From positions 13,214 to 77,213 of IMG/VR virus record IMGVR_UViG_3300048998_000119: a stretch of DNA of 64,000 nucleotides, one strand, 5' to 3'. A model generated the notes under the pieces. It ran no database searches and was not told the origin of the DNA. It saw nothing but the letters and a program-made list of their open reading frames with translations. Shown piece by piece: positions 1-55,508 of the stretch. Each line of letters begins with the position of its first letter. Position 1 is the first letter of the stretch. Origin of the DNA: a virus. Its lineage: Duplodnaviria; Heunggongvirae; Uroviricota; Caudoviricetes. A program made the translations under genes and the position numbers.

Positions 1-1046
1 TTCGCGATGGCGAAACGACGACTGTCACCGATGGGCGTGTCGTAGGTCAGCTGCTTCAGTTCTTTCAAACCAATGCTGTTGCCCTTGGCGTTGCTGAACT
101 GATCAATCGTGAGCTTACCCTCGTTGAGTAGCTTCACCTTCTGATAGTCACCCAGGTGCTGTGCCTGAACCTCTTGAGGCTGACGCTTGAGCCAGTCGTT
201 GTAGGTCTCACGCAACGGTGTGGCACCATCATAGTAAGCTTGCTGCTTCTTGGTGAGTGCTTTAATATTCTTACGACGTACCTGCGCGACACCTTCGAGT
301 TCAGCCATCTGTTGCCAAGACTTAAACACAGGTACAGTTGTGCTTCGGCAACGATAGTGAGCGGGCGGGAGCATGTCTCGTTGGTTCACACCGTAGATAT
401 GACCGTCGCGTGAAGCACAGGTCTGCGTCGTGCGTGAATCCAGAATGGCGATATACTGCCAACCCGTCAACGACTTCTCGTTTGCGGTGTAGACGGCATT
501 ATCTGCCTGGGCCACAACAGAAGTGATGGACGTGATGGTCAGCGCCTCAGACTGACTGCGACTCAACTTGTGAATGTTGCCTCTGCGGACCATCACAGCG
601 ATTTCCTCAGCTGTCTTCTTGTCCGCAATGCCTTTACGAATTACCTGCTCAAGACGAATACGCTCAGCCTTTGAGATACGACCCCAAGCTTGCGAGAGAG
701 TGTCGTTGTCGACGAGCTTCGTCTTCAGTAGAAAGTTTTCCGGGACAGAGGTGGTCTGCGTGCGCCAAAGCTTACCGATGGCGGCGTCCATGGTCTGCAC
801 CTGAAAACTAATCTGATCCGCCATCAGTGACAGCAGAGAGTTTTTACTTTCATTGAGGGCCTTGTCATAAGCCCTCTTATATTCTGCGTTGATTGAGCTA
901 CCGTCGCGGATTGCCTTGTCCAGGTTCGCGGCGTGTTCATCCAGTATTTCGCCGAGCTTGCCGTTGATTCTGCGCTCATGAAGACGCAACATCGCGGAAC
1001 GATGAACGGCGGCGTCGTAGCTCTTTGTGGCTGCATTATCGGGCAT
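1..1046 (-). CDS. head morphogenesis protein, Mu F / SPP1 gp7 family (C-terminus beyond window start)
   Basis: Not in ORF track because it runs off the window. Own translation from ATG at ~1046 (AAGGA RBS 8 nt upstream) gives MPDNAATKSYDAAV...WQYIAILDSRTTQTCASRDGHIYGV..., matching the conserved D-x-R-T-x-x-C-x-x-DG core of Mu-F/gp7 head morphogenesis proteins. Confidence 0.65.
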   Translation of the reverse strand, partial: MPDNAATKSYDAAVHRSAMLRLHERRINGKLGEILDEHAANLDKAIRDGSSINAEYKRAYDKALNESKNSLLSLMADQISFQVQTMDAAIGKLWRTQTTSVPENFLLKTKLVDNDTLSQAWGRISKAERIRLEQVIRKGIADKKTAEEIAVMVRRGNIHKLSRSQSEALTITSITSVVAQADNAVYTANEKSLTGWQYIAILDSRTTQTCASRDGHIYGVNQRDMLPPAHYRCRSTTVPVFKSWQQMAELEGVAQVRRKNIKALTKKQQAYYDGATPLRETYNDWLKRQPQEVQAQHLGDYQKVKLLNEGKLTIDQFSNAKGNSIGLKELKQLTYDTPIGDSRRFAIA

Positions 1047-1188
1047 AAGATTTCCTTATTTGTTCAGCTTATCCTTATTCACGTCGGGATCGGCTGCTTG
1101 AGCGGCCAATTCTTCCTCTTGGTAAATGGGATCCATAAATTTGTTCATAGCAAAAATAAGGGAGAGCCGCTAAGCCCTCCCTCACTCC

Positions 1189-1593
1189 TCACTTGATCTT
1201 GTCGTATGCGCCGTGGAGCAGCGCATAGTCGGCCTGAACCGAATGACCGGTCGTAGCGACCTCGGCGTCCTTGGCCTTGGTGTAGGCCAGCTTACCCTTC
1301 GCACTCAGCGTGGCGAAGCGATTCTCGACAGTATTCGTCATTAGTTTAACTCCTGTATTTACTTTATAACCATGCTCGGTCAATACCGCGCCGGTCATTT
1401 TCACAAAACGTCCTAAGACAGTGGTGTCGAAGTAAACATCTGTGTTCGGGTGCAGAGAACGAAACTCGGCGAACATTCCCGCCAGCATATAAGGCTTCAC
1501 CAGATAGAGGAAGTCTATATACAGTCTTGGTTCATACACCCAAGTCATAAGTCCGACTAGCTCACCGTCCAACTCTCTGCGTATTCTATTCAT
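1189..1593 (-). CDS. hypothetical protein (134 aa)
   Basis: ORF track; co-oriented, 4-nt overlap with upstream GH5 gene. Confidence 0.45.
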   Translation of the reverse strand: MNRIRRELDGELVGLMTWVYEPRLYIDFLYLVKPYMLAGMFAEFRSLHPNTDVYFDTTVLGRFVKMTGAVLTEHGYKVNTGVKLMTNTVENRFATLSAKGKLAYTKAKDAEVATTGHSVQADYALLHGAYDKIK

Positions 1594-2825
1594 CGCCCCG
1601 AGATAATCTCCAGGTACTCACTGTGCGGCACTTGTGCCCGAGTGCCCTTCTTGGGTTCGATTTTATAGACATAGTTCTCGGGCCATTCACGTCCACCGCC
1701 CCACCAAGTAATTCCGAGCCAATCATCGGGATGACCTTTGATTTCAGCGACTGCTTGATTGAGATCATCGCGGCAAACAGGATTGATGCCACCGGCGTTG
1801 CCGCCTGCACCCTCGCCCATGTAGGCTTTATAGCCCAGTAGAGCAGCGTCGGCGCGAAGGCTGTCGTACCAGAAGCCGGTTTTGGTTACACACTCCCAGT
1901 GCGTACCCGTACCGCCGTCATCCCAGTACATATGACCTTCCATAAGGAGATTGGTGTCACCCAAACCGCCCACACGCTTGATTGCACAGACGGCGCTTTC
2001 ACACGCCTTGGTGTCTGCCTCATGCTTGTTGAAGCGATAAATAGCGCTGGAACCGGGCCATTCTACGGCGATCGTGTTGTTGAAGCCAGCCGCACGGAGT
2101 CCCGCGATGATGGCCTTGGTGTCTGTCGCCCACTGCATCCAGTCATTCGTCACGACGGTGTCGTTGAAGTCCCTCGGCTCATTCATCAGATCGATGATGA
2201 CTCTGGGATTTGACTTGTAGGGAGCAGCCTTCTTAATCCAGTAGGGGATTTGCTCGTCGGGCGTATGCCAAGTGAAGTGATGGCGATCCATCACCACGGT
2301 CGCACCCTTGGCCAGCAAGGAGTCTATAGAGAAATAGAGCTTACTGGTCGGAGTGACGTCCTTGAACGCCACACGGAACAACTGGAAGTTCTGCGCCGGA
2401 GCGGTATACCAGTCGATGTCGTCTTGATTTGGACAGAGAGCGCCATCGTTCGACGCGTAACAACCTGCGAGGTTGACACCGAAAGGATTGAGCGTGGGGG
2501 CGGCGACTGCACCGTCTAGCACCTGATACTTGAACGCGTCGGCCTTGTAACCAACGGTAGGTACAGGAGCTACGGCCTTGAGCTTGGTTGCTCCACCGCT
2601 CAAAGAGAAGCGCGCACTGTTCATGCGGTTGACCCAGCCATCCTTCAGACGCTGAGTGAGTACGCCGTTCGCGTCGACCTTCTCCACAAGAGGTTTACTC
2701 GTGTAGATGATGTCGCCCTGATGGACTTGTATCACACCGCCCGATAGCGGAATGGGGATTGTGTCTGCGTACGCAACTGTACTGGACAGAAGCATAAACA
2801 GCATCAGAAAGTATTTGATCATCAT
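1590..2825 (-). CDS. secreted glycoside hydrolase family 5-like enzyme (putative polysaccharide depolymerase)
   Basis: N-terminal signal peptide MMIKYFLMLFMLLSSTVAYA; GH5 acid/base motif IIDLMNEPR and nucleophile motif YMGEGAGG; GHMYWDD. Confidence 0.7.
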   Translation of the reverse strand: MMIKYFLMLFMLLSSTVAYADTIPIPLSGGVIQVHQGDIIYTSKPLVEKVDANGVLTQRLKDGWVNRMNSARFSLSGGATKLKAVAPVPTVGYKADAFKYQVLDGAVAAPTLNPFGVNLAGCYASNDGALCPNQDDIDWYTAPAQNFQLFRVAFKDVTPTSKLYFSIDSLLAKGATVVMDRHHFTWHTPDEQIPYWIKKAAPYKSNPRVIIDLMNEPRDFNDTVVTNDWMQWATDTKAIIAGLRAAGFNNTIAVEWPGSSAIYRFNKHEADTKACESAVCAIKRVGGLGDTNLLMEGHMYWDDGGTGTHWECVTKTGFWYDSLRADAALLGYKAYMGEGAGGNAGGINPVCRDDLNQAVAEIKGHPDDWLGITWWGGGREWPENYVYKIEPKKGTRAQVPHSEYLEIISGR

Positions 2826-5422
2826 GAGACCTTTATGAGACGGCCCGAACCGTATTCCGGCTTGACCGTACGACTTGCGCTTTCAGGCTTCACAATACGT
2901 CCGGATGGCGTAATCGTGGGTTTGTACAGAATGTAGTAGCCCGTGACCACATCATCGGCTTCTCGAATTACTTGAGGTGCTCCGACCAGCGCACCGCCGC
3001 CCGAAACAACTTCCGACAGCAAGTCGGCGTCTACACCGATACGCACTTTGGCGTCAGACACGTAGACATCATCCTCCAGGGATATAATTGAATCTACCTT
3101 GTCATACGCGACGACGCTTGCCGTGACCGTATCGTTCTCCAAGGTGAAAGCGCAGTAAGCCATAATGGGATAAGTCACGTCTCCCGACGCGATGTCGTCT
3201 TCCAGTTGCATCAGCCCGTTGGCGTATACAAGCTCGGTGCTGACACTGGACAGAATGTCGTTGTCTTCGATGATGGAAGCCTGGGTTAATACAACAACCT
3301 TGGCTGAGCCAACGAACCCGTCCGCTTCCTCGCAGATGTCTGCATTGAAGGTGAAACGAGAAGGCAGCGCACCGATGAGCGTATCATCTGCCTCAGCTAT
3401 AAGCCCGGTGGCCTGCACCTTGGCGATGAGGCTACCAGTTAGAGTGTCGTCGGAAACCAGCATTGTGCCGCTGGCCGTTACTCTCGCGAGCGTCAAACCT
3501 AGAGCGACGTCGTCTGCTTCCACCAGAGAAGCGTTGGCTTGCACCTTGACGCCCGTGGAGGAAACAATCGTGTCGTCGCCCAACGCGATCGAGCTGCTTA
3601 TCTGTAGACGTACAGAACCCGAACCTGAAGCGGTGTCGTTGGCTTCTGTGAACGAGCTATTGGCGGTCGCCGCAGCGGAAGCGGAAGCCGCAACCATAGG
3701 ACGGACTGTCTTATATGGATGATCCGTTGGTAGTAAAGCCTGCAAACCTGTGGCCCAGGCATACCAACCGCTCAACATAATACGTAAGTCGTCTGTCAGC
3801 GCACCTGCAACAATAACCAACTGTTGAAGCGGTCCGTTCAGACCCGTGGTGTCGGTCGCGCTGTAACCACCAACAGTGACAAGCTGAGTATCCACAGGAT
3901 ATGGCACAAGTCTGCTGAGTGTACCACTGCTACCGTTAATGTTGAGATACTGACCCGCAGAATCCCAACTGGCGATCGCCAACACGTCCTTACTGTTCCA
4001 GGATACAGCGCTAACGGTATTAGAACCAGACTTATTACTGATGTATGCGTTGCCGTTATTGGCAATGCCGATGGCACGTACGTTGGTGGTACCCTGGTTG
4101 AAGAGGGAACGATAACCAGTAGTCGTGAATTCACCACCCGCCAAAATAACAACAGGTTGAGCGCCTGAGGGCATCGTCGTGGCTTGCGCAGTCATCTGCG
4201 TATTGCTGTTGAACATAATAGCCGGATAGCCATTACGCCCGGTGGCATTGTATGATGGACCCCTACCAGCGGTCGCGGGCGTAAGATTGAAGCCACCTAC
4301 GCCCTTATTGTTCCACTGCAAGAGCTTAGCGCCGTCTGTGTCGAAGACCATTGTGGCGGTATCTGCACTATCAAACCAGCCAATAAGCGCACTGCCCAAC
4401 TGCGTGGGCGTCCAAGGGACCAACAACTGAGCGGAACCTTGCACAATGTCGCTGTCTTCCAGCATAGAGCCAATTGACTTGACACGTACACTGGCGTCAC
4501 CCGAACCCACATCGCCGCCTGAACCGGGAGCGTTAAGCATAGCACCGATAAGCACCTTACCCACAGAGACGAGTGTGTCGTCCTCCGTGAGCAGGTTGGC
4601 GTCTGCTTTGACGAGCTCCTGAGAGCTACTAACGAGAATGTCGTCCGCTTCAGCGATAGAGGCATCAGCCTTAATCAGAAGCGAACTGGCACCCACAGCG
4701 ACATCGTCGTCGGTCGTGATTGTGGCGTCCGCTTTGATCACAACAGCACTGTCCGCAGACAGAACATCGTTCTCCGTCAACAAGCTGGCGTCGGCCTTCA
4801 CAGGCACAACAGCATCAGACAACAGAAGATCGTTATCTTCAAAGCCACCGCCGTCGAACTTGGGAGGATCGGGCAGAGTATACTCAGCCACAATCAAGCC
4901 ATTGCCGCCCACCGAAGAGGCCTTGTTCGCGCCGAACCCGAAGGCTGAACGCTGTAAGGTTTCTCCGGTCGAAGAAGTCCAAGACGTAGGCAAGGCAGGA
5001 ACAGCTGCACCCGAATAACTACCTGTCGTACCACTGCCTGCGGCCGAACCGTTCGTGGTGGTACCCTTGGCGCTGTTGTAGACGTTGTAGTCCACAGTAC
5101 GAGGATAGATACTAGAGTTACTGGCCGCAGCACCCGGCGTTGTGCCGGAAGCGTTGTAACCGTAACCCGCCATCACAGTGCGATCGTAATGTGGGGAGTT
5201 TACACTGGTTGTGGCTGTACCGCCTACCGCGTCCACGGTGATGACGAGCACTTCACCGGGAGTGACCGCCATAGTGCTGACGATGATTACACCGCCAGAA
5301 CCACCCGCACCCGTTGAAGACTTACCGCCTGCACCGATGGCGGTGAACTTGATGGACGTGCAACCTGCCGGTACTGTATAGGTAGTCGTACCGGCTTTAA
5401 GAAATTCGACTACCTGAGACAT
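2822..5422 (-). CDS. tail-fibre-like protein: Gly-rich N-terminal domain, ConA/lectin-like central domain, two blocks of ~14-aa repeats
   Basis: 866 aa; repeats KADASLLTENDVLS / KADATITTDDDVAV / KADASIAEADDILV etc; low complexity G/S/T-rich N-terminus. Confidence 0.6.
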   Translation of the reverse strand: MSQVVEFLKAGTTTYTVPAGCTSIKFTAIGAGGKSSTGAGGSGGVIIVSTMAVTPGEVLVITVDAVGGTATTSVNSPHYDRTVMAGYGYNASGTTPGAAASNSSIYPRTVDYNVYNSAKGTTTNGSAAGSGTTGSYSGAAVPALPTSWTSSTGETLQRSAFGFGANKASSVGGNGLIVAEYTLPDPPKFDGGGFEDNDLLLSDAVVPVKADASLLTENDVLSADSAVVIKADATITTDDDVAVGASSLLIKADASIAEADDILVSSSQELVKADANLLTEDDTLVSVGKVLIGAMLNAPGSGGDVGSGDASVRVKSIGSMLEDSDIVQGSAQLLVPWTPTQLGSALIGWFDSADTATMVFDTDGAKLLQWNNKGVGGFNLTPATAGRGPSYNATGRNGYPAIMFNSNTQMTAQATTMPSGAQPVVILAGGEFTTTGYRSLFNQGTTNVRAIGIANNGNAYISNKSGSNTVSAVSWNSKDVLAIASWDSAGQYLNINGSSGTLSRLVPYPVDTQLVTVGGYSATDTTGLNGPLQQLVIVAGALTDDLRIMLSGWYAWATGLQALLPTDHPYKTVRPMVAASASAAATANSSFTEANDTASGSGSVRLQISSSIALGDDTIVSSTGVKVQANASLVEADDVALGLTLARVTASGTMLVSDDTLTGSLIAKVQATGLIAEADDTLIGALPSRFTFNADICEEADGFVGSAKVVVLTQASIIEDNDILSSVSTELVYANGLMQLEDDIASGDVTYPIMAYCAFTLENDTVTASVVAYDKVDSIISLEDDVYVSDAKVRIGVDADLLSEVVSGGGALVGAPQVIREADDVVTGYYILYKPTITPSGRIVKPESASRTVKPEYGSGRLIKVS
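2932..3640 (-). repeat. tandem in-frame repeats (block 2) inside fibre gene
   Basis: C-terminal third of protein: ANASLVEADDVAL, ATGLIAEADDTLI, TQASIIEDNDILS, DSIISLEDDVYVS... Confidence 0.55.
4546..4840 (-). repeat. tandem in-frame DNA/peptide repeats (block 1) inside fibre gene
   Basis: recurring gcgtc(c/g)gc(c/t)tt...gtcgtc units encoding (K)ADAxhxxxDDxL. Confidence 0.6.
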
Positions 5423-5424
5423 GA

Positions 5425-5832
5425 TTAAGCGTTACCGGCCGTAATGGTGAAGCTGTTGACGATGATGTCCTGGTTGACCTGAACATTGGTGTTGTCCACC
5501 GTGATGTCGCCACCCTGACCGGTCATGGACACGGTGCCCTGAAGATGGCAGGTCGTGCCGTCAGAAGCATAGATGCGGAAGTGCGCGATCACACCTGCGG
5601 CATCAGCCTGAGTGTCTTCCCACGTACCGAGCTTAGCCTTACTGCCGCCAGCCGCTGCCGCCATCCAGTCAGAAGGAAGAGCGAGCGTGGCCACAACCGT
5701 GCCGGTGTCTGCAGCCGCACAGGAAGCCGGAGCCGCGCCTGTACGAAACTTGAGGATCGGAGAAAGACCGATGGCCGCCTCGATGGCGTCCAAGCGGGCG
5801 TTGCGCACCACGACGGACTGCTGAATCGACAT
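5425..5832 (-). CDS. hypothetical virion-associated protein (135 aa)
   Basis: ORF track; tightly packed upstream of fibre gene. Confidence 0.45.
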   Translation of the reverse strand: MSIQQSVVVRNARLDAIEAAIGLSPILKFRTGAAPASCAAADTGTVVATLALPSDWMAAAAGGSKAKLGTWEDTQADAAGVIAHFRIYASDGTTCHLQGTVSMTGQGGDITVDNTNVQVNQDIIVNSFTITAGNA

Positions 5833-5835
5833 ATG

Positions 5836-6027
5836 TTAGTTCCTTTGGTATCTTGCGTTACGTGCGCCTGGCACATACGGACTCGCCGTATTCTCCAGAA
5901 GGGTCCAAGTGTAGCCTTCCAGTTCGATATCTTTGTTGAATAGTGTTCTCGGACCGAACCACGAGATAAGCAGCAGGTCTTCTTTGATGAGGGCTTGGCA
6001 ATCGACGCCATCTTTGGTGATAATCAT
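5836..6027 (-). CDS. hypothetical protein (63 aa)
   Basis: ORF track, 4-nt overlaps with neighbours. Confidence 0.3.
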   Translation of the reverse strand: MIITKDGVDCQALIKEDLLLISWFGPRTLFNKDIELEGYTWTLLENTASPYVPGARNARYQRN

Positions 6028-6377
6028 CGTTGCACAACCCTCACGGCGAACGTACGCTGACGAGTACGCGAAGGTACGGCATCAGACAGAACTGTGAGTT
6101 CCAACGGTAGGGTGACACCGCCCACAAACAGAGGATTGCTCTTGTAAGTGGGGTCGATGCTGAACCACAACTGCAGTATGTTACTCTTCAGGACAGGCGC
6201 TCTCACGCCGTTGCCCAGCACCAGACCGAGCAACAACGCATCGGGCAAGACCACAACAGAGTAGTCAGCCACGTTGTCGCCTGTATCCAGCATAGCAGAT
6301 AAATCGATCTTGTAATCAACTACGTCCGAAGGATCCATGGTGTCCGTCCAAACGTAGGTTGTGGATGGAAATGCCAT
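6024..6377 (-). CDS. hypothetical protein (117 aa)
   Basis: ORF track; start overlaps stop of 502-aa gene. Confidence 0.4.
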   Translation of the reverse strand: MAFPSTTYVWTDTMDPSDVVDYKIDLSAMLDTGDNVADYSVVVLPDALLLGLVLGNGVRAPVLKSNILQLWFSIDPTYKSNPLFVGGVTLPLELTVLSDAVPSRTRQRTFAVRVVQR

Positions 6378-7885
6378 TAGCTTTTCAGAACCTTCTTTAC
6401 AGGAGCTTGAGGTTGAGCGCCCGAGAGTTGAGTGTTGACGGCCGAAGCGATCTTATCCGTGTAGGACTTGAATGAGTCTTCGTCCTTGACAATCTCCTTC
6501 TGGCCCTCTTCGTCGTCGTAGTCGTCTTCCAACACGTCGTTGGCCTTGAGCAGCTGCACCCAAACAGTACGAGGAATGTGACCATTCTCATACCATTCTG
6601 TGGCGAGCCGCAGCCAACCTTCACCGACGATCGTCTGAGCAAAGTCGTCTTGCAACTTAAACTTAATCTGATCTGCGGTGTACTCAGTATTGTAGCGCCA
6701 GTTCAGCATAGTCGCGATGACCTGTGACATGATGACGCTGATGCGAGTATTCAGAGTACCCAGGCGAGCCGTCTGAGAAGCATTACGCAACTGTAGGGCG
6801 ACACCACTTTGAGCGGTTTCGGGGGACAGCATACGGACACCGAGCTGGGCCAACTCCTGAATACCCGAGGCGATTGAACGATCGTAGTCCACCAGTGCCT
6901 CGGTGGGCGGCTTGAGAACATCAAGCTTGGAATCCTTGTCGGGTAGGTGTAACCATGAACCCAAACCTGCGGAAACAATCTTATTGAAAGCTTCAGGATC
7001 TTGCACACCGGAGACGTAAGGCGTGTACGTGCCTGCGCCCAACAGCAAGTGATTGCGACGAGTGACCTTGTTGTACAGGGCTATCTCTTTGTTCACAATC
7101 GTGGTGAGGAAAGGATCGACGGGATCCAACTCGCCGTTGTTCGGCCAAGCAGGAATGAAATCCATAAGCTCACCCTGATACATGGGAGGCTTATCTGGTT
7201 GCGGTTGCTCGATCCAGTCTTCCTGCTTCACGTTGCCATTCTCGTCGTAGGTCTGTCTGAAGGTGCGTACACGGTATGCGTCGTTGAACAGCTCATGAAC
7301 GCGAATGACCGGCACATAGACAGGGTGGAATTCACTCTGACCGGGGATAGACTCATACACACAGACAATTACTCGCGTAAGCTCTGTGGCGTCGTACTCC
7401 CAGTTGATGATTGACTCAGCGGGATAGAGCGTGGCGAAGGGAACACCAGAGTCGGTGTCCATGTCAACAAAGGTCCAGCCCCGCGAGGAGACTACTTCTT
7501 CGGAGACAGAAGACAACATGTAGCTGGCGATCGGAACACCGTCCCGACCGAACTCGTTGACTATCCATTCACGTGCACCAGCCGGTACGTCGTCGGGCAG
7601 AACAATCTCTGGTTCTTTACGCAATAGTGCACCCGACAGTAGATGAGAAAACTCGGCGGAAATACCGGGCAACTCTGCCTCAGAACGCAGAAAGTCATAT
7701 TGATCCTGCTGCATGGAAGGCGAGAAAGGAATGAGGAAGTTGTCTGGATGATGCACTAGGGCGTCATGGTCCTTGACCTCTTCCTCACTACCGCACACCG
7801 CCCGGCATTTCTTCCAAAGCTTAGCTTTAGCGAGGTAAGCGTCGCATGGTGTCGCGACTGTCTTAGTGGTGGCGGCGATACCCAT
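6377..7885 (-). CDS. putative portal protein (502 aa, acidic C-terminal tail)
   Basis: size, position downstream of terminase, acidic C-terminus DDYDDEEGQKEIVKDED; no diagnostic motif recognised. Confidence 0.45.
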   Translation of the reverse strand: MGIAATTKTVATPCDAYLAKAKLWKKCRAVCGSEEEVKDHDALVHHPDNFLIPFSPSMQQDQYDFLRSEAELPGISAEFSHLLSGALLRKEPEIVLPDDVPAGAREWIVNEFGRDGVPIASYMLSSVSEEVVSSRGWTFVDMDTDSGVPFATLYPAESIINWEYDATELTRVIVCVYESIPGQSEFHPVYVPVIRVHELFNDAYRVRTFRQTYDENGNVKQEDWIEQPQPDKPPMYQGELMDFIPAWPNNGELDPVDPFLTTIVNKEIALYNKVTRRNHLLLGAGTYTPYVSGVQDPEAFNKIVSAGLGSWLHLPDKDSKLDVLKPPTEALVDYDRSIASGIQELAQLGVRMLSPETAQSGVALQLRNASQTARLGTLNTRISVIMSQVIATMLNWRYNTEYTADQIKFKLQDDFAQTIVGEGWLRLATEWYENGHIPRTVWVQLLKANDVLEDDYDDEEGQKEIVKDEDSFKSYTDKIASAVNTQLSGAQPQAPVKKVLKS

Positions 7886-7888
7886 AAC

Positions 7889-8407
7889 TTAGATGTCTTT
7901 GGTCAGTTCCGAAGCCGGACCGGTGTAGGTGCGACCCGTGACCACGTTGACGGCTTCAATGTTGCCGTCGTTGTCGAGCATCTTCACGCGGTAGTTTGCC
8001 GGTACAGAGTTCTGGACCTTGTCATTCGACTTGTCGCGGCTCTGCGACTTGAGATTTTCGGCGCGTGCCTTGGCGGTTGCCATGAGCTCGTCCGTGGCCG
8101 GAGCACTAACCAGACCAAGAGCGTGCTGCATGGTCTTCTGATGATCGAGGCGCTCAAGCTCAAGCGTCTCAAGATGACGATCCTGCTTGTACGTACCCGC
8201 GACCACTTCGGTACGGATCTGATCGTGAGTCTCGGACACAAGAGCGGAAGGATCCTTGACGGTCACACCGGTCTTCTGCATAACGATTTCGGCGTTGTTG
8301 TCCGAGTTACGCTGAGACAGCTCTGCGATGGCCGCGCCGGTCTTCTCGTCCAGAGTATTCTCTTCGAGCTTCGGGCCTTCGACCTTGGGGGATTTGGCAG
8401 TTACCAT
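7889..8407 (-). CDS. hypothetical protein (172 aa)
   Basis: ORF track. Confidence 0.45.
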   Translation of the reverse strand: MVTAKSPKVEGPKLEENTLDEKTGAAIAELSQRNSDNNAEIVMQKTGVTVKDPSALVSETHDQIRTEVVAGTYKQDRHLETLELERLDHQKTMQHALGLVSAPATDELMATAKARAENLKSQSRDKSNDKVQNSVPANYRVKMLDNDGNIEAVNVVTGRTYTGPASELTKDI

Positions 8408-8409
8408 AG

Positions 8410-8871
8410 TTATTCTTCTTTCTGAAATTTAGACAAGCTCTCGCCGGTCATTATCGAACGTTCAAGAACTTCACGCGACTCCTGAAGAGCGCGCATTTCG
8501 CGAACCTTAATCGCTGCGGCCTGAGCCTTGGCGGGGTCTTGCTCAATCAGCACCAACAACATCGTCAAACACTGATCGAGATTGTTCATGCGATGACGCA
8601 TAATGCGGATTTCGGCTTCGTGCAACATCTTTTCTTTTTCGAGCCTAGACTCGTATTCCTTACGCTGTGACTCGAGCAGTTCTTCAACCTTAGTCACACG
8701 ACCCATGAGGTCATCGACGAGTTTGTCTTGCGCGCTGCCTTGTAGTTCTTTCATCTTGGGTCGTTGTTTAATCCAGGCCACGAGTGCACCGCCGACCAGA
8801 AGGTTCAGCAAGCCCACCATGCCTGTAGTCCAAGACCACCCAGTTACGGACACAACATCATGGGGCTGCAT
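8410..8871 (-). CDS. membrane-anchored coiled-coil protein (153 aa)
   Basis: TM segment MVGLLNLLVGGALVAWI then heptad-rich region. Confidence 0.45.
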   Translation of the reverse strand: MQPHDVVSVTGWSWTTGMVGLLNLLVGGALVAWIKQRPKMKELQGSAQDKLVDDLMGRVTKVEELLESQRKEYESRLEKEKMLHEAEIRIMRHRMNNLDQCLTMLLVLIEQDPAKAQAAAIKVREMRALQESREVLERSIMTGESLSKFQKEE

Positions 8872-9088
8872 CGGACTCTAGTCTCTGATAATAAATTGAG
8901 AAGCCAGTGAGCAGCAACGCCAAGACCACAGGATAAAGACCTGGACTCGGTGTCGAGAGTCGATTGAGCGATCCGAGGAAACAGAGCGCCCAGAAGGGAT
9001 CGGAGTACCGTCCTTTGTAGAACATCAAACGCCACAAGGGCATAATGAATGTCAGCAACGGTAGAATCCAGAAGTAGGAGAGTAACAT
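8858..9088 (-). CDS. small membrane protein (76 aa)
   Basis: three hydrophobic stretches; follows terminase stop. Confidence 0.35.
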   Translation of the reverse strand: MLLSYFWILPLLTFIMPLWRLMFYKGRYSDPFWALCFLGSLNRLSTPSPGLYPVVLALLLTGFSIYYQRLESDAAP

Positions 9089-10425
9089 TAAAAGGTGGAT
9101 CCTTTCGCCGAGCCGACCACAGAAGATCGAACAGGGAAGAGATAGTCGGTGGCGTACCTAACACCATCGGAGAAGTGTTCCGCGTTCTCAGTCTTATCGA
9201 TGAGCGCGAGATCGCTGTTTCCTTCAACCCACTTTGTTCGTTCCACGGACTTAATCGTGTCCGGGCAACCGATTGGATCGAAGAACATGTTGGTCTTGCC
9301 GTTGGCGTTCTTGAGCATACTGTTGACGGCGTTCGTCGAATCCACAATGGGAACCTGCGAGCGAGCCATGACGGTGATGCCTGCTTGTCGCAACAGAGAG
9401 AAATCGGTTTGACCCACCACGGCTGAACTCTTACGAGCGTTGCCTGACGGATCGGGATAGGCGATGATGCGGCGAATGTCGTTCTTAAACTTGGCGTTGA
9501 TGTAAGCGGCCAGCTCAGGTGTGTCCGGCGAGCCTTGCTTTTCGGCGAAGAATTGCATTTGCCCGCCTCGGACCACAAAGAAAGAAGTCGCCATACGCAT
9601 GACGTTGAAGTCGATGGCGCAATGGATTGTTTCTTCGGGTTCGGGCGGGATGATGTTTTGCACGTGGATTTGGCGATCGAACATATAGAACAGTGACGCG
9701 CCTGATTCCTTAAACAGCGCCAAGTACTCACTCGCAAAACGAATGGGATCCATTTTCTGTTTGGCCTTCTCCACTTCACGTGGATCCAGCAGAGGCGAGG
9801 CGGTGTAGTCGTGTATGTACGTCATCCACTCGTTGTCGATTTCGCGGTAGTTGCTGACTTCCTCCAGAAAGTTAAATCCTTTGGGTGTTCCAGCAAATAG
9901 TGCTCTTCCCGCTGAACGCGCACCGTACAAGTCGGCGTGCATCCAGGACCAGCGAGAAGTAATCGTAGGGTAAATCACGTTCTCCCAGTTCTCTTTCAAG
10001 TTCCTCATGGAAGACGGCTCGTCGATGACGACAAGATAGTACCCTTTACCGCGCATACGCTCGACGGCTTCATAGGATAACAGATGAAGCTCAACGTTGT
10101 TTGGGAAATAGTAACGACCCAGTGATTCCTTTTCGGATTCAACAAAGTCGCTTATGCCGAACTGATTCGACAGCAGTGGTTGATAGATGTCTCGGACCTG
10201 ATCAAAGGTCGGCGCGACGATGGCGACGTTCTTGTTCGGAACAGACGCGTCCAGCTCCATAAGCTCAAAGACAGCAGTCATAGCCACCGTGGCCGCTTCG
10301 TGACTCTTGCCCCAACCGCGACTGCAGACGGCGACCGCGAAACGGCATTTCAGATCAATGAATAGATCTCTGTAGATCTCACTCTGTGTCGGATGCAGGC
10401 TTATCTGCGGCATCTTTGTTCCCAC
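9088..10425 (-). CDS. terL: terminase large subunit
   Basis: Walker A CSRGWGKSH, Walker B YYLVVIDEP, C-terminal nuclease region AYPDPSGNARKS. Confidence 0.85.
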   Translation of the reverse strand: MGTKMPQISLHPTQSEIYRDLFIDLKCRFAVAVCSRGWGKSHEAATVAMTAVFELMELDASVPNKNVAIVAPTFDQVRDIYQPLLSNQFGISDFVESEKESLGRYYFPNNVELHLLSYEAVERMRGKGYYLVVIDEPSSMRNLKENWENVIYPTITSRWSWMHADLYGARSAGRALFAGTPKGFNFLEEVSNYREIDNEWMTYIHDYTASPLLDPREVEKAKQKMDPIRFASEYLALFKESGASLFYMFDRQIHVQNIIPPEPEETIHCAIDFNVMRMATSFFVVRGGQMQFFAEKQGSPDTPELAAYINAKFKNDIRRIIAYPDPSGNARKSSAVVGQTDFSLLRQAGITVMARSQVPIVDSTNAVNSMLKNANGKTNMFFDPIGCPDTIKSVERTKWVEGNSDLALIDKTENAEHFSDGVRYATDYLFPVRSSVVGSAKGSTF

Positions 10426-10759
10426 CCAGAGTAAATGTGCCGCCTTGATCAGACAGTGAAATGTGCAACACGGGAACGGGCTTGTCTTCGACAGCTTCCT
10501 TGATAGGCGCGTAGCCGTACTTCAGAAGTTTCTCGGCGAGATTGGCCGCTTTCTCGATCAGATCCATGTGGAAATCAACCAGATAGGCTTTGTGGGAGCC
10601 ATCCTTGTTCAGACGATGATAAGTTCCTTCGGAAATCTGTTCTTGTGTCTCTATTTCTTTCAGAAGGCGAGCGTAGTTCTCAGCCATCTTTTGTATTGGA
10701 TCGAATCCCAGGGAAGACAGCCGGTGAGCCGAGTTCCCAAGGCCACGTTTTGCCGACAT
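10379..10759 (-). CDS. putative terminase small subunit (126 aa)
   Basis: position immediately upstream and overlapping terL; no motif support. Confidence 0.35.
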   Translation of the reverse strand: MSAKRGLGNSAHRLSSLGFDPIQKMAENYARLLKEIETQEQISEGTYHRLNKDGSHKAYLVDFHMDLIEKAANLAEKLLKYGYAPIKEAVEDKPVPVLHISLSDQGGTFTLGGNKDAADKPASDTE

Positions 10760-10780
10760 GTAAATTCCTTGAGCTTCTTG

Positions 10781-11143
10781 TTAGCCAGTGTTTTCCAACA
10801 CGGCTGCGAGATAGGCTTGACGAGCAGAATCTGAATCGTCAAAGTACCCCAAATGTTTCTGGCCTCCCAAAACCCGCAGGCGAGCCTGAAATTTTCGACG
10901 AGTACTATCCCAGTGATAACCTTTTTCTTGAGGTTTGTCTATAAGAAGGAGATTGTCGAGAGACAGATTATCATTATTCTGATCAACACAGACGACTGTT
11001 TTCCCCTTAGGGAGCGGGCCATGATGCAGCATCCACGCAATCACTCGCGGGAAGTATCTTGTGGTTTTGTACCGATAGCGAAGCGAGGGGTTCAGACGGA
11101 GCTGGTCCTGATACAGATGACGACCTATATGCTCAAACATCAA
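10781..11143 (-). CDS. HNH homing endonuclease with AP2 DNA-binding domain
   Basis: VVCVDQNNDNLSLDNLLLI (HNH_3-like) followed by YHWDSTRRKFQARLRVLGGQKHLGYFDDSDSARQAY (AP2). Confidence 0.65.
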   Translation of the reverse strand: MMFEHIGRHLYQDQLRLNPSLRYRYKTTRYFPRVIAWMLHHGPLPKGKTVVCVDQNNDNLSLDNLLLIDKPQEKGYHWDSTRRKFQARLRVLGGQKHLGYFDDSDSARQAYLAAVLENTG

Positions 11144-11159
11144 GTTTATCTCGCTTATC

Positions 11160-11290: not shown

Positions 11291-11337
11291 GGGCTCTTAG
11301 GGCTAATTCAACGGGGTCTGGTAAGGGCGAACGATCG

Positions 11338-11400: not shown

Positions 11401-11413
11401 GGAGGGGAGAAGG

Positions 11414-52432: not shown

Positions 52433-52891
52433 TCAACGGGATGGATGATGCCGAGTCGGCCAAACCAAACGACCCGAAGCGACAGGCGTCCAGCCATCTT
52501 TTTCAAGCACTCGCTGGAACACACTCTGGTTATGAAGCGTACTGCTCGTCACCGCGATGTGGAAACCCTTCTTCTCAACCCACTCTCTGAAGTCTCTGTG
52601 GAAGTCACGTAACTCGTGAACAGCCTTGACGCCAGTAATGTTTGAGTGATAATAGATTTGACTGACCGCTCGAATCGGTGAGTGATGATTGCCGTGGCCT
52701 TCTATAGCCATCATCCAACCATGCTCACCGATCTTGAAGTACCGTCTATCCGCGATTGCTTGATTCAGGAAAGCTCTAAAATGAACTCGATCGTGTGGAA
52801 AGAATTCATCGTTGTAGCGTGCGTAGAGATCTTCGGACAGATCACAAATCCATCCGAAGTCTGATCTCTTAGCTTGTCTGTAAGTACCCAT
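52433..52891 (-). CDS. hypothetical protein (152 aa)
   Basis: ORF track. Confidence 0.4.
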   Translation of the reverse strand: MGTYRQAKRSDFGWICDLSEDLYARYNDEFFPHDRVHFRAFLNQAIADRRYFKIGEHGWMMAIEGHGNHHSPIRAVSQIYYHSNITGVKAVHELRDFHRDFREWVEKKGFHIAVTSSTLHNQSVFQRVLEKDGWTPVASGRLVWPTRHHPSR

Positions 52892-55508
52892 CTTGTGTCT
52901 GCGCCAAATAGGGTGCCAGCATCTTCATAGAGGGGCTGTCCACCGGAGCCGAATAGTTGTTGTTGTCTGGATCCAGATGATAGATGTAGCTGAGCGGGAA
53001 GCCCGAACCCCATGTCGTCCAACCAAACAACACATCTTTATGGTCAAGCATATACTGATACATACTTGCCATGATAGGTCCACAGATGGTCTGAGCGGGA
53101 TCGCCTCCCGCCGTCTCACCGATGAAACCTCGTTTGTTGTGGGCGGTCAACCAATCCACGAACTGGCTGATTCTGCCGGAGCCTGTTCCGGACACACAGA
53201 AAGCTGAAGTACCGGAACCGTCGCTGTCGTTATAGCTGTGGCAGTGGTAAACTTCATTGTTGGCCGGATCATAGCTGGTGATGTTGGCGTCGCCGTTGCC
53301 GTTCTTGATGAACGAACCCGCCGAAGCGTACTCAGACATTTCACGATGGATTAGACCGGTGAAGTTAGTCTGAGCGCGAATGGCGTTCATCACTGCTTGA
53401 TTTATGTCTCGGGCCCAACCGGCGCCCAAGGAGTTGTTCACATCCTTCGGCTCGTTCATGAGATCAAAGTGAACACGAGGGTTGCCTTGAAACACCAGCG
53501 CGAGTTTCACCCAGACATCGATTAGATGCATGGTATTCAGTTCCGCGCCGTTGTAACGAACAGTGACGCCTCGACCATAATACTTATTGTCTGTTGAGTT
53601 GAAATACGGCTCGATGTTGTACTCCATGAAGTTATGCATATCCAGCAGAATATATCCGCCGAGGACGTTAGTCCAATAATTGATAACTTCAATGATTCGC
53701 CGCATATCCTGGTCATTGCTACCGGTGAACGGTACGTCGGGTCCGTAATAGAGTGGTCCCATAAGAACAGGTTGAATACGTTCCCAACGAATTGGAAGAC
53801 GTGCATAGCGTACGCCCTTGGACCAGTAGTAGTCCATTCGCTCATGCTGATAGCCCACACCGTTTTCCGGCTTGGACGGGTAGTAATAACGACCGCCGTT
53901 GTACGCGTACTTCTTGCCTGTGGTTGGATCGAAGATTGCGCCGAACTCACCGCCTGAGATATTCAAACCGTAAAGATTCTTGGGACAAGGTGGTTTAATC
54001 AAACCCGACAAGTAGACACAACTGTCCGGTATCACAAGTGGATCGAGATCCGGATCCGTGAGCCGCATAGTGTGCTTGCCCGTACCCGCGTGAGGAACCG
54101 TAAAGGTCACAGCACCCTGTGCCAAGGCTGTGTTCGTCGTCGTCAGCCTCGTGCCGTTTAAGGACATAAAGCCGCTCGCCGCCAAAGCTGCCTGCAGCGC
54201 CGAGTCGAACCCTGGGGGTGAGTTGACCGACGCCAGCGTCACGCTGCTGGGATTGTCGTTGGCCGGACCTTGTAAGGTGTAGGTGATGGTCGTACCGTCC
54301 GAGGTGGCCCGCAGTTCCCAGAACCGAGGAGGAAGATCGGCGAAGATACGCGTCTGCGAACCTCCGTTCATGGCGACCGGCGTGTATTGCCTCCACCAGT
54401 TGTTACGATAGGTCGTGCCGTCTGAGGGTGGCGGATTGGCGGAAGACTTCGTGACTAGATCATAGATAAACTTTTGTCCCGTCGGAACATAGATTACCCA
54501 GTCACCTTTCTTGTAGATGGTGGTGTTGTTCCAGTTGCCCTGATACGACACTGTGGCATCTTCAAAGCCGACAGCCACATCGCCCTCGATTGAAACGTTG
54601 GTAATACAATCCCACTGCATCGGGAGAGGTTCCGCCACACCGTCTTGTTTGACGGTCAACAGTATGCTCATTGGTTTGGTGGGATCGTAGCCCTTGCCCC
54701 ACGTCACATAACCACCGTTGAACCACTGTCCGGCCGTCGCTTCAGTCCATTGTGGAATTTCCACAGTGCAACCGGCCTCAAGTGCGGCTTTACGCAACTG
54801 TGTTCGGAAGTCCGGATCCAACTGCTTCTGACCGACGTTCGCTTCGTAGATTTTACAGCGATGTCCCTCAATCAGATTTGTCGTGTAGTAAGTAACTCTG
54901 AAGGAATCTCCTTCCTTCAGCTGCGCCGACACCGCTCCGTGATCCACACTCTCACAGTAGATATTCATGGCGGGAACGCCGGTGGGTCTCCGCGATGTGT
55001 CACGTACGTAAATGTAGCTACCAGAACCTGGAGCGATGTCGCCGTTGCCATAACCCTTCAGCAAGATCTGAAGATCACGTCCCACAGTTTTATCCGGAAA
55101 AGTGGTGTTCTGATCGTCCGAACGGTTACGTCTCACCGTGTTGGTGAACGTCATCACGTCGAAGCCTTTATAACTCGGCGTCGTCCTGATGGCGAACGAC
55201 ATAGTGCCGGACACAGCTGGCGTAGTGGTGCTGGACAGACGCTGGCTTGTACAACCGTGCTTGGCACACTCCGCCGCCACAATACCGTCCCAGTCTTGAA
55301 CGTAGGCGCCGTTGCCGCCGATATTGCCGGGTCCAGTAAACCAGACCACAATCATTTCATCGCCGTTGCCGGATGGATTGAAACAAGCCAACGTCCAAGT
55401 AATGTCGTCTCCTTCGCTTATATAACGTTCATTCAAATGGAGTTTCTGCCACGCAGGTTTAAGTGCGTAAAACGGAAACTCCATCGACGTATTAAACGGA
55501 GTAATCAT
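52869..55508 (-). CDS. tail fibre/spike with C-terminal GH5-like glycosidase domain
   Basis: 879 aa; C-terminal HFDLMNEPKD and GFIGETAGG paralleling the GH5 motifs of the 1590..2825 gene. Confidence 0.65.
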   Translation of the reverse strand: MITPFNTSMEFPFYALKPAWQKLHLNERYISEGDDITWTLACFNPSGNGDEMIVVWFTGPGNIGGNGAYVQDWDGIVAAECAKHGCTSQRLSSTTTPAVSGTMSFAIRTTPSYKGFDVMTFTNTVRRNRSDDQNTTFPDKTVGRDLQILLKGYGNGDIAPGSGSYIYVRDTSRRPTGVPAMNIYCESVDHGAVSAQLKEGDSFRVTYYTTNLIEGHRCKIYEANVGQKQLDPDFRTQLRKAALEAGCTVEIPQWTEATAGQWFNGGYVTWGKGYDPTKPMSILLTVKQDGVAEPLPMQWDCITNVSIEGDVAVGFEDATVSYQGNWNNTTIYKKGDWVIYVPTGQKFIYDLVTKSSANPPPSDGTTYRNNWWRQYTPVAMNGGSQTRIFADLPPRFWELRATSDGTTITYTLQGPANDNPSSVTLASVNSPPGFDSALQAALAASGFMSLNGTRLTTTNTALAQGAVTFTVPHAGTGKHTMRLTDPDLDPLVIPDSCVYLSGLIKPPCPKNLYGLNISGGEFGAIFDPTTGKKYAYNGGRYYYPSKPENGVGYQHERMDYYWSKGVRYARLPIRWERIQPVLMGPLYYGPDVPFTGSNDQDMRRIIEVINYWTNVLGGYILLDMHNFMEYNIEPYFNSTDNKYYGRGVTVRYNGAELNTMHLIDVWVKLALVFQGNPRVHFDLMNEPKDVNNSLGAGWARDINQAVMNAIRAQTNFTGLIHREMSEYASAGSFIKNGNGDANITSYDPANNEVYHCHSYNDSDGSGTSAFCVSGTGSGRISQFVDWLTAHNKRGFIGETAGGDPAQTICGPIMASMYQYMLDHKDVLFGWTTWGSGFPLSYIYHLDPDNNNYSAPVDSPSMKMLAPYLAQTQDGYLQTS

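Follow-up and report, generated by a model that had tools for sequence, protein, structure and literature searches.

The Ralstonia podophage GP4 carries a Fiber I protein, gp80, together with a fibre-tail adaptor, gp77 (PDB 8JOU; Zheng et al., J Mol Biol 2023, as cited in PMC10925440). In the Shigella myophage Sf14, neck whiskers are made of gp30 and gp31 (PDB 9C39), and the whisker genes immediately follow the portal gene (PMC11821841). The garland protein gp014 of Agrobacterium phage 7-7-1 can be found beside the long tail fibre gp015 (PDB 9RKV; PMC12796354). The locus considered here belongs to a phage contig of 77,118 bp, of which a stretch of 64,000 nucleotides, hereafter the window, was analysed. 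Like GP4, it encodes a Gp77-like small protein, and in related loci Gp80 and Gp77 matches lie beside, or are fused to, a large glycine-rich protein. However, GP4 is a podophage, whereas the present genome encodes a tape measure and has the gene set of a long-tailed phage; the Gp77 match is partial and under the cut-off, the 135-aa protein has no Gp80 sequence match, and a lectin-bearing protein of 866 aa is additional. Sf14 differs in being a myophage with whiskers of two small proteins only, attached via the adapter gp37, and its whisker block has neither a large fibre nor a glycanase. As in 7-7-1, a small protein is encoded next to a fibre gene in the packaging/head region, although gp014 belongs to a myophage and is located on its baseplate fibres, not at the neck, and sequence identity is only 17-22%.

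Regarding genome organization, the phage is a siphophage whose relatives include EBPR siphovirus 1 and the Naomviridae (DSS3_VP1), with which it shares the order TerS-TerL ... portal-MuF(giant)-scaffold-capsid-connector-tube at 30-58% identity. In contrast to the present locus, the portal and MuF genes of these relatives are adjacent, and in EBPR siphovirus 1 the genes between TerL and the portal include a Gp80-like one and two for large carbohydrate-active proteins; a secreted GH5 was found in none of them. Glycanases of the BcsZ, PslG and ExoK type are encoded inside bacterial exopolysaccharide loci, and PghP of Bacillus phage PhiNIT1 is a soluble, non-virion phage depolymerase. Similarly, chromosomal members of the GH5 family described below lie in exopolysaccharide loci and the phage GH5 is free-standing instead of forming part of a fibre, but the known glycanases belong to another glycoside hydrolase family. 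To our knowledge, neither Sec export before lysis nor linkage to a fibre gene has been described for PghP, whereas the phage GH5 is predicted to be so exported and is genetically linked to fibre genes.

Table 1. Features of the portal/MuF junction and of the GH5-bearing tail fibre (window coordinates).
Feature	Position	Strand	Evidence or remark
MuF-domain head protein, first 348 codons of 1525 aa	1..1046	-	Downstream boundary; ORF leaves window start
Intrinsic-terminator-like hairpin and U-tract	1145..1192	-	Closes unit ahead of MuF gene
134-aa ORF	1189..1593	-	Start overlaps GH5 stop; gene in source contig as well
Exported GH5 endoglucanase, 411 aa	1590..2825	-	Pfam Cellulase/GH5 PF00150, E 1.1e-21
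GH5 signal peptide, aa 1-20	2766..2825	-	
GH5 N-terminal domain, aa 21-115		-	
GH5 catalytic domain, aa 116-411		-	
866-aa multi-domain repeat protein, candidate fibre	2822..5422	-	ORF; architecture as in P0028
Repeat array 2, aa 587-830, ~11 copies of the array 1 unit	2933..3664	-	Self-comparison
Central ConA-like lectin domain, aa 335-580	3683..4420	-	AF2 pLDDT ~90 and Foldseek
Repeat array 1, aa 191-337, ~6 copies of 21-residue unit ..DDxLxSxxxxLVKADAxL..	4412..4852	-	Self-comparison
N-terminal glycine-rich beta domain, aa 1-175	4898..5422	-	Gly_rich_2, phrog_4474
135-aa small virion protein, garland/whisker/Fiber-I fold	5425..5832	-	phrog_3758
63-aa ORF	5836..6027	-	Called as gene in source contig too
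117-aa candidate fibre-to-virion adaptor, Gp77-like	6024..6377	-	Start overlaps portal stop by 1 nt
Portal, 502 aa	6377..7885	-	Upstream boundary; phrog_145, DUF4055
879-aa tail fibre, C-terminal GH5 domain (residues 563-834)	52869..55508	-	PF00150, E 4e-29; context, outside block

A preliminary description of this DNA had placed about 5 kb, including an 866-aa repeat protein and a GH5 enzyme with a signal peptide, between the putative portal and a Mu-F-like gene. This stands: the spacer amounts to 5330 bp, the ORFs are as described, and both proteins are borne out by Pfam and repeat evidence. Positions 1047-6376 of the minus strand are occupied by six tightly packed genes flanked by the portal and the MuF-type gene (Table 1). 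Every gene in the run that starts with the portal and ends with the 134-aa ORF abuts or overlaps its neighbour, and translation of the block is coupled to that of the portal gene. The terminator-like hairpin folds at -24.4 kcal/mol (z -4.9), a value equalled by none of 200 shuffles, and no promoter signal exceeding chance was found. Two sub-modules make up the block, namely an accessory fibre set and the GH5 endoglucanase with the 134-aa gene and the terminator. Their parts are of known kinds; the constant pairing of an exported GH5 with fibre genes has so far been undescribed.

The large protein of the fibre set has the same architecture as P0028, from a Sphingomonas prophage, to which it is 64% identical in the central domain and 35% at the N-terminus. 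Its N-terminus matches Pfam Gly_rich_2 just under the cut-off (E 4.5e-5; 24.0 bits against 24.3) and phrog_4474 (E 1e-8), and AF2 places beta strands at aa 1-85 with moderate confidence. The repeats, found by self-comparison and by printing in a 21-residue register, are visible in the protein only, as TRF gave no DNA repeat in the encoding sequence. For array 2, the shaft being modelled as a monomer and with low confidence, AF2 predicts a strand of 13-14 residues every 21 residues (pLDDT ~60). The lectin domain is matched by Foldseek with a probability of 1.0 to a trans-sialidase lectin domain, AbnA domain 4, BoNT Hc-N, CRP and a Pan3 tailspike chain, and has 2573 representative homologs, some matching Laminin_G_3.

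Among the small proteins, the 117-aa product matches Pfam PF23148 (Gp77) with E 8.1e-6 and 26.7 bits (cut-off 27), over profile positions 2-33 of 84 only. A homolog of 165 aa (E 7e-11) can be found in contig L010, upstream of another pair of a large protein and a secreted GH5; a Gp77 domain is also fused to the C-terminus of P0028, and in L013 the protein after a homolog of the 135-aa protein ends in such a domain (E 4e-16). The 63-aa ORF gave no match in a family search. The 135-aa protein matches phrog_3758, "virion structural protein" (E 7e-29), and has more than 7900 homologs; those in L014 and L018 come immediately after P22-type portals, and one in L049 follows a MuF gene. Its AF2 model (pLDDT 92.7) matches 7-7-1 gp014 (chain A, assigned by length), an Sf14 neck chain (chain K, assigned to gp31 by length alone) and the Fiber I entry chain of GP4. 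A search of the 135-aa sequence against Gp80, the Pfam family of GP4 Fiber I, gave no match; this family is matched by the protein upstream of P0028 and by gp37 of EBPR siphovirus 1. Known proteins with the 135-aa fold lie at the neck (Sf14), the tail (GP4) and the baseplate fibres (7-7-1), and the candidate fibre would probably attach at the neck or tail and not at the head shell.

The start codon of the GH5 gene overlaps the stop codon of the 866-aa gene (ATGATG). By inspection, a Sec-type signal peptide was called at its N-terminus, MMIKYFLMLFMLLSSTVAYA followed by DT, which shows a basic residue, a hydrophobic core (Kyte-Doolittle ~2) and an A-x-A motif. The signal peptide is kept in 15 of the 16 aligned family members, which supports a non-virion enzyme; the sole exception, the chromosomal P0016, has a longer ORF and possibly a lipoprotein-type N-terminus. 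Invariant in the alignment are N215-E216, H298, Y300, E338, W375 and four cysteines, and the catalytic residues are intact. Its closest matches in the PDB are endo-beta-1,4-glucanases from fungi and bacteria (e.g. 6TPC, 1GZJ, 3QR3, 4W7U; E-values only ~1e-15 to 1e-11), which share the NEP acid/base, the GE nucleophile, H-x-Y and the C-terminal W. Unlike these, the phage enzyme has an extra N-terminal domain of ~95 aa, and its family is essentially restricted to Sphingomonadales and their phages: of 12 genomic matches among 185,579 species, 11 fall in Sphingomonadales. The chromosomal copies are located in loci for exopolysaccharide synthesis and export, next to genes for Wza-like export, a priming transferase, GT4 and UDP-glucose dehydrogenase. 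The substrate is more likely to be an exopolysaccharide of bacteria than cellulose of plants, although we know of no sphingan hydrolase described in this GH5 family.

In all 11 phage and prophage contexts, the GH5 gene lies directly downstream of a gene for a protein of 487-1476 aa, with GH30, GDSL, SASA, Calx-beta, GH5 or GH43-like domains. Since these upstream proteins differ between phages and are mutually non-homologous, the linkage could reflect a preferred insertion site and not a joint function. The portal-to-head slot is seen once among the 11, in L044 (TerL, portal, 960-aa protein, secreted GH5, scaffold, capsid). The 134-aa ORF is weakly similar (hhalign E 8.5e-4) to a 101-aa gene after the GH5 of L010. 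A peptidoglycan hydrolase (lysozyme, GH108, weak SLT match) is encoded in addition to the GH5 in prophages L009 and L019 as well as in contig L010, so the GH5 is not the lysin.

The tail fibre with its own GH5 domain, 26% identical to the exported GH5, is 41-43% identical over its full length to fibres of the Sphingomonas prophages L009 and L012. The host is most likely a sphingomonad, although the phage, at 52-53% GC, departs widely from the content typical of Sphingomonas. While this second GH5 protein lies where the tail module had been noted, its distance of some 50 kb holds in window coordinates only. The 13 kb of the contig outside the window contain the rest of the MuF gene (Phage_Mu_F, E 9.6e-10 for the full 1525-aa gene in L022/L004) and the scaffold, capsid, connector and tube genes, which continue straight into the tape-measure gene at the opposite end of the window; the structural genes being contiguous, the gap is an artefact of where the window was cut.

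Taken as a whole, the block is in our view probably a mobile accessory cassette at the portal/MuF junction, providing an extra virion fibre and an exported, non-virion endoglucanase that are functionally linked. Among the readings proposed beforehand, a fibre or decoration system with a soluble depolymerase comes closest: the conserved signal peptide fits a non-virion enzyme, while the small proteins and the 866-aa protein resemble a GP4-type fibre and adaptor set more than a capsid decoration. The fibre would comprise the 117-, 63-, 135- and 866-aa products, with the Gp77-like protein docking it to the particle, the 135-aa protein acting as a small fibre or whisker subunit, and the 866-aa protein forming a long beta-repeat shaft with its glycine-rich and lectin domains, the latter binding a host surface glycan. 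Attachment would most likely be at the collar or neck, immediately beneath the portal.

A less likely reading is that the GH5 serves mainly for receptor destruction or superinfection exclusion, stripping or shortening the surface polysaccharide bound by the phage's fibres. Produced by the infected cell or lysogen and exported to the envelope, it would prevent later phages from adsorbing and spare progeny from debris, a logic paralleled by the Llp lipoprotein of phage T5, encoded beside its receptor-binding protein. That the GH5, with its widely kept signal peptide, always adjoins a receptor-binding-type gene agrees with this, as do its location in L009 and L019 behind the lysis genes, where the late region ends, a typical position for conversion genes, and in L033 and L038 after a large carbohydrate-active protein; moreover, the related domain in the phage's own tail fibre may share its substrate. 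Here, however, the gene is part of a late structural operon and gave no separate promoter signal, Sec alone delivers to the periplasm and not to the cell surface, and the GH5 is conserved while the adjoining fibre proteins vary completely. Receptor destruction and the cassette explanation are not mutually exclusive.

It is improbable that the block in its entirety contributes nothing to the particle and rides along as cargo (a moron or auxiliary metabolic island), the 866-aa product being a non-virion adhesin or other protein and the GH5 a host-derived enzyme merely helping host or phage metabolism. Only in evolutionary terms is an island, as suggested early on, correct: the portal and MuF genes are adjacent in four of five related lineages, which identifies the block as an inserted cassette. 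Its parts are found at other slots in other phages, the junction takes unrelated inserts (a tRNA in DSS3_VP1, ribonucleotide reductase genes in Kolga), and the GH5 family includes chromosomal members. Against cargo, GC, GC3 and codon use resemble those of the remaining genome, the block gave no promoter signal beyond chance and is coupled to the portal gene, three of its products resemble known virion fibre parts, and the nearest relative, EBPR siphovirus 1, has its analogous Gp80-like gene and large carbohydrate-active proteins in a neighbouring slot.

Even less credible is a virion-bound depolymerase carried on the upstream fibre, the hydrophobic N-terminus then not being a cleaved export signal. 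That in several phages the GH5 gene strictly adjoins the gene of the large upstream protein, its start overlapping the stop of the latter, could be so explained, and the conserved N-terminal domain could dock; yet the n-h-c layout and A-x-A site recur in the 15 relatives, the invariant cysteines suit an oxidising compartment, the mutually unrelated partners make a common docking surface unlikely, and chromosomal members stand alone in exopolysaccharide loci. Finally, that the 502-aa protein is no portal and the gene order therefore conventional, an early suspicion, can be dismissed, as no evidence supporting it was found beyond the lack of a direct sequence match to solved portal structures, and a comparison with portal families shows it to be a true portal (phrog_145, E 8.4e-53, residues 7-485; DUF4055, E 3e-7; 40-41% identity to the annotated portal proteins of DSS3_VP1, Pelagibacter phage Kolga and EBPR siphovirus 1, placed between TerL and MuF in syntenic relatives).

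Under the favoured explanation of a cassette joining a fibre to an exported endoglucanase, the GH5 would never enter the virion; the Sec system would send it to the periplasm, where it would fold with its conserved cysteines forming disulfides. Freed at lysis, or acting earlier on nascent polymer, it would cut the host's own exopolysaccharide, and such cutting would help progeny to escape and spread through slime.

Every gene of the window is on the minus strand, and the ORFs that separate the portal gene from the MuF-type gene are tightly packed: from the portal stop codon to the 134-aa gene, neighbours overlap by 1-4 nt or lie 2-3 nt apart, and the junction between the 866-aa and 411-aa ORFs is a stop/start overlap (..TCATGATGATC..). 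The ORFs and coordinates of the preliminary description are thus right. The hairpin 3' of the 134-aa gene (-24.4 kcal/mol, z -4.9) is followed by a U-tract, in the gap before the MuF ORF, and is a good intrinsic terminator. A second strong terminator-like hairpin, with a T-run, precedes the HNH gene, the two hairpins thus bracketing a unit that extends from the HNH gene to the 134-aa gene. Regarding the small ORFs upstream of the portal gene, the 153-aa protein combines a membrane helix at its N-terminus with a coiled coil, and because it is 43% identical to the product of a gene beside the GH108 endolysin of prophage L019, it may be a lysis protein.

Features around the portal/MuF junction (window positions)
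Feature	Position	Strand	Remark
Terminator-like hairpin	11353-11377	-	precedes HNH gene
HNH endonuclease	10781-11143	-	directly upstream of small terminase
Small terminase	10379-10759	-	
Large terminase	9088-10425	-	
Small ORFs of 76, 153 and 172 aa		-	between terminase and portal; 153-aa ORF at 8410-8871
502-aa protein (portal)	6377-7885	-	
117-aa ORF	6024-6377	-	
63-aa ORF	5836-6027	-	
135-aa ORF	5425-5832	-	
866-aa ORF	2822-5422	-	
411-aa ORF (GH5)	1590-2825	-	
134-aa ORF	1189-1593	-	
Hairpin 3' of 134-aa gene	1145-1192		
Gap			142 nt, between 134-aa ORF and MuF ORF
MuF-type ORF	1-1046	-	runs off window start

The largest protein of the block, of 866 aa, has a modular architecture. Its N-terminus (residues 10-175) scores 24.0 bits against Pfam PF21722 Gly_rich_2, just under the cut-off of 24.3, and matches phrog_4474 (E 1e-8). 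Two arrays of a 21-residue repeat, with about 6 and 11 copies, are seen in the protein only, the gene having no DNA-level tandem repeats. The central domain of 245 residues is modelled as a ConA-like lectin fold (pLDDT ~90), a beta-sandwich of the ConA-like/LamG superfamily, and Foldseek relates it with probability 1.0 to the lectin domain of trans-sialidase, domain 4 of an arabinanase, the Hc-N domain of a clostridial toxin and pentraxin, as well as to a chain of the tailspike of cyanopodophage Pan3. Among 2573 representative relatives of this domain some match Laminin_G_3, a match that the 866-aa protein itself does not give, and no catalytic domain was found in the protein. Its sole close homolog, P0028 from a Sphingomonas prophage, has the same architecture, with 64% identity in the central domain. 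Sequence searches of the PDB with the 866-aa and 502-aa proteins returned nothing meaningful.

The 135-aa protein belongs to phrog_3758, annotated as 'virion structural protein', and to a strongly conserved family with more than 7900 matches, the best at 70-79% identity. Its AlphaFold model (pLDDT 92.7) resembles chains of three small virion proteins, which, named by gene length, are gp014 of Agrobacterium phage 7-7-1, gp31 of Shigella myophage Sf14 and gp80 of Ralstonia podophage GP4. The model thus has the small fibre/whisker/garland fold of the 7-7-1 gp014 chain, the Sf14 neck chain and chain a of the GP4 structure 8JOU. In 7-7-1, the garland protein gp014 is encoded beside the long fibre gp015 (PMC12796354), while gp31 of Sf14 is a whisker protein (PMC11821841). 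At the sequence level the relationship is fainter: no Pfam match to PF23140 Gp80 was found at E <= 0.1, a PDB sequence search gave nothing meaningful, and hhalign comparisons with Gp80-positive proteins gave E values of 0.43 and 0.0064. The protein encoded just upstream of P0028, and gp37 of EBPR siphovirus 1, show weak Pfam Gp80 matches. On the strength of the model, this common and unannotated family can be labelled a putative small fibre/whisker subunit. The family (also at L013-L018, L023-L025 and L048-L050) is unusually conserved and mobile. It has members in phages that infect Caulobacter, cyanobacteria or mycobacteria as well as in P22-like contigs, with three typical positions, namely 3' of the portal gene, 3' of MuF and, in the late operon, at the end where the fibre genes lie.

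The 117-aa protein is a candidate adaptor resembling Gp77, the fibre-tail adaptor of GP4, by a match to Pfam PF23148 that is borderline (26.7 bits, cut-off 27) and partial (profile positions 2-33 of 84). A PDB sequence search with it gave nothing meaningful, and tblastn against isolated phages gave no match. The link gains credibility from three independent observations. A homolog (E 7e-11) is encoded upstream of a further pair of large protein and secreted GH5 in a 79-kb contig of an uncultured Sphingomonas MAG (L010); P0028 carries a Gp77 domain at its C-terminus; and in the IMG/VR contig L013 the gene 3' of a homolog of the 135-aa protein (68% identity) encodes a 543-aa protein that has a full-length Gp77 domain (E 4e-16).

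Fibre genes beside the portal gene are a known arrangement, and one that recurs in the lineage of this phage. In Sf14, two whisker genes lie directly 3' of the portal gene (PMC11821841). Homologs of the 135-aa protein are encoded directly 3' of the portal in two P22-like contigs and 3' of MuF in one further phage; Caulobacter phage Seuss, Pseudanabaena phage Pan4, mycobacteriophage Charlie and contig L048 have them in the late region, at its fibre end. The genes for the fibre and the garland protein of 7-7-1 lie between the small terminase and head genes, distant from the baseplate genes. The nearest relative, EBPR siphovirus 1, has an analogous accessory set one slot away, between TerL and portal, made up of a Gp80-like gene and genes for two large carbohydrate-active proteins. 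This set (2995-8712 in that genome) comprises the Gp80-like gene of 140 aa, a 779-aa protein whose N-terminal domain is rhamnogalacturonan-lyase-like, and a fn3-rich 696-aa protein annotated as a glycosyl hydrolase. As for where the fibre would sit on the virion, the Sf14 and GP4 precedents favour the neck or collar, a placement to which we give somewhat less than an even chance; gene position alone does not settle the site. Different cassettes occupy the slot 3' of the lysis genes in two Sphingomonas prophages that share one integration site. The cassette of L009 holds an 812-aa GDSL/Calx-beta protein, a secreted GH5 and a 120-aa gene, that of L012 an 82-aa gene, a 131-aa Gp80-like gene, a 992-aa glycine-rich/Gp77 protein and a 97-aa gene, and the window phage unites one element of each.

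The 411-aa protein is, from its sequence, a member of glycoside hydrolase family 5 with intact catalytic residues. It matches PF00150 Cellulase at 77.9 bits (cut-off 23.5; E 1.1e-21), its best solved relatives in a PDB sequence search are endo-beta-1,4-glucanases, and its catalytic and signature residues line up with the motifs of solved endoglucanases. N215-E216-P217 (acid/base), E338 (nucleophile), H298, Y300 and W375 are invariant in 16 family members, as are four cysteines. Judged by eye and from a hydropathy scan, residues 1-20 are a typical signal peptide with a basic n-region and a hydrophobic h-region, ending in A-Y-A, and equivalent signal peptides occur in 15 of the 16 aligned relatives. 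A glycosphingolipid target of the endoglycoceramidase type, considered for this GH5 and its GH30 partner in locus L011, is not supported in view of the endo-beta-1,4-glucanases as nearest solved relatives and of the chromosomal members that lie in exopolysaccharide (EPS) loci.

The GH5 family is small, with 26 clusters in 5.8 billion proteins, and tblastn against 50,697 isolated-phage records gave no match. Across 185,579 species, with one genome per species, it is restricted to Sphingomonas, Novosphingobium and Altericroceibacterium, with the exception of a single weak and partial match. Chromosomal members adjoin genes for a Wza-like exporter, a priming sugar transferase, a GT4 transferase and UDP-glucose dehydrogenase, neighbourhoods that are, judged by gene content, exopolysaccharide loci. 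In phages and prophages, the GH5 gene lies directly 3' of an ORF of 487-1476 aa in all 11 independent contexts, often with a stop/start overlap. These upstream ORFs carry GH30, GDSL/SASA esterase, Calx-beta, GH5, GH43-like, FAD-oxidoreductase-like or lectin domains; no mutual homology was found between the large proteins of different phages, nor between the 135-aa protein and the small proteins encoded upstream of them. The same slot as in the window is used in L044, a 109-kb viral contig, where TerL and a portal of the same PHROG are followed by a 960-aa protein, a secreted GH5, scaffold and capsid, the two portals having no detectable BLASTP similarity. In a P22-like contig the pair of large protein and GH5 is placed between gp4 and gp10, and in a SU10-like contig between the head genes and the adaptor. 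A Sphingomonas xinjiangensis prophage (L033, 7800-10426) has tandem secreted GH5 paralogs of 440 and 385 aa, 3' of a 1226-aa protein with a FAD_oxidored-type domain. The enzyme is probably not the endolysin, since prophages L009 and L019 and contig L010 carry the GH5 together with a separate lysozyme, GH108 or SLT-type (weak match) lysin. An endolysin search of the window (with homologs from L009, L012, L019, DSS3_VP1 and Kolga; Pfam scans of 10 small ORFs) found none.

The preliminary description had offered three readings of the block, and the one that pairs a fibre or decoration system with a soluble, non-virion depolymerase comes closest; we infer both of its parts, the virion fibre and the free exported GH5. 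Another, a moron or island, agrees in the evolutionary sense with comparative evidence that the 5.3-kb block is an insertion. Core proteins are 30-58% identical to their EBPR siphovirus 1 counterparts, in the same order, and MuF lies directly 3' of the portal in EBPR siphovirus 1, DSS3_VP1 and two IMG/VR contigs, only a tRNA separating the two in DSS3_VP1; Pelagibacter phage Kolga has ribonucleotide reductase genes there. Since relatives have portal and MuF adjacent or with such cargo between them, the junction is a recurrent insertion point and the block an insertion relative to the adjacent layout. A moron would be expected to have its own promoter and terminator and a deviating composition; the GC content, GC3 and synonymous codon use of the block do not leave the range seen in the remaining phage genes, so that an island test on composition was negative, promoter-like sites were no commoner than in shuffled sequence, and a terminator is present downstream only. 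A megablast search with the first 12 kb against the 50,697 phage records gave no match. The third reading, a mis-assigned portal, fails, as the 502-aa protein matches phrog_145 over its full length (residues 7-485 of 502; E 8.4e-53) and Pfam DUF4055 (31 bits, cut-off 25), shares 40-41% of its residues with the portals of DSS3_VP1 (Naomviridae), Pelagibacter phages Kolga and Aegir and EBPR siphovirus 1, and has homologs between the large terminase and head-assembly genes of syntenic relatives, all of which identifies it by homology as a genuine portal.

Genes outside the window were read from a 77,118-bp contig (Logan SRR27584636) that carries an identical portal protein; the 866-aa and 135-aa proteins are also present on the 77,213-bp JGI contig. 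There, the complete MuF-type ORF has 1525 aa and is followed by a 151-aa gene, the scaffold, a 399-aa capsid protein, connectors, a tube protein and chaperones, then by the 928-aa tape-measure gene at the far end of the window, Dit-like and J-like proteins and an 879-aa fibre with a GH5 domain at its C-terminus. The structural genes are therefore a single contiguous run, and the tail module described as lying about 50 kb away is an effect of the window cut. The MuF-type protein (1-1046 of the window, continued in L022 at 10401-14978) has a Phage_Mu_F domain at aa 132-237 and also matches the single-subunit RNA polymerase family PF00940 (aa 980-1086, E 5.8e-9). Full-length homologs occur in DSS3_VP1 and IMG/VR contigs, while in EBPR siphovirus 1 the homolog is in two parts, of 1068 and 432 aa, with an HNH endonuclease gene splitting it near the PF00940-matching region. 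A separate T7-like RNA polymerase of 763 aa is encoded at 38305-40596.

Over its full length, the 879-aa fibre shares 41-43% identity with fibres of two Sphingomonas prophages, and neighbouring tail proteins also match. These matches, along with the taxa in which the GH5 family occurs, point to a sphingomonad host. The GC content of the phage, 52-53%, is well below that typical of Sphingomonas, despite fibre and GH5 homologs from this high-GC genus. Relatives of the phage include the dU-DNA Naomviridae.

From the computed domain content, folds, conserved export signal and catalytic residues, and gene linkage, a mechanism can be proposed. The 117-, 135- and 866-aa proteins would build an accessory, lectin-bearing virion fibre, while the GH5 would be exported by Sec, fold in the periplasm and act as a free enzyme. 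It could cut host exopolysaccharide, either the nascent polymer or after release at lysis, and so would complement the virion-borne GH5 fibre and aid progeny escape. A receptor-destroying or exclusion role of the GH5 is a rival that is compatible with this escape role. Sphingans have a common backbone and variable decorations, and a polymer of this type would suit a GH5 that stays constant next to fibre proteins that keep changing. A bolder extension of the escape role, which we consider unlikely, is that phages of slime-producing sphingomonads attack EPS from two sides, with a variable virion fibre or depolymerase outside and, inside, the conserved Sec-exported GH5, whose gene would always come directly 3' of the fibre gene. 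In the periplasm of the infected cell, the GH5 would cut nascent polymer and shut off or liquefy the capsule before lysis, and would represent a dedicated class of capsule shut-off or escape enzymes, possibly the first sphingan-type gum hydrolases.

Every component of the block is of a known kind. What is new is a predicted Sec-exported, Sphingomonadales-restricted GH5 travelling with fibre genes, of which no description in Sphingomonas phages was found in the literature, and the model-based assignment of the small fibre/whisker fold to a very common family of 135-aa phage proteins. Because fibre and whisker genes adjoin portal genes in other phages, the odd gene order need not be an anomaly, and of more use is the finding of an exported GH5 family confined to Sphingomonadales and their phages, always tied in phage contexts to genes of the receptor-binding type. 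If these enzymes cut sphingan-type exopolysaccharides, this would explain how such phages spread in very viscous slime, and would make them candidates for modifying the industrial gums gellan, welan and diutan.
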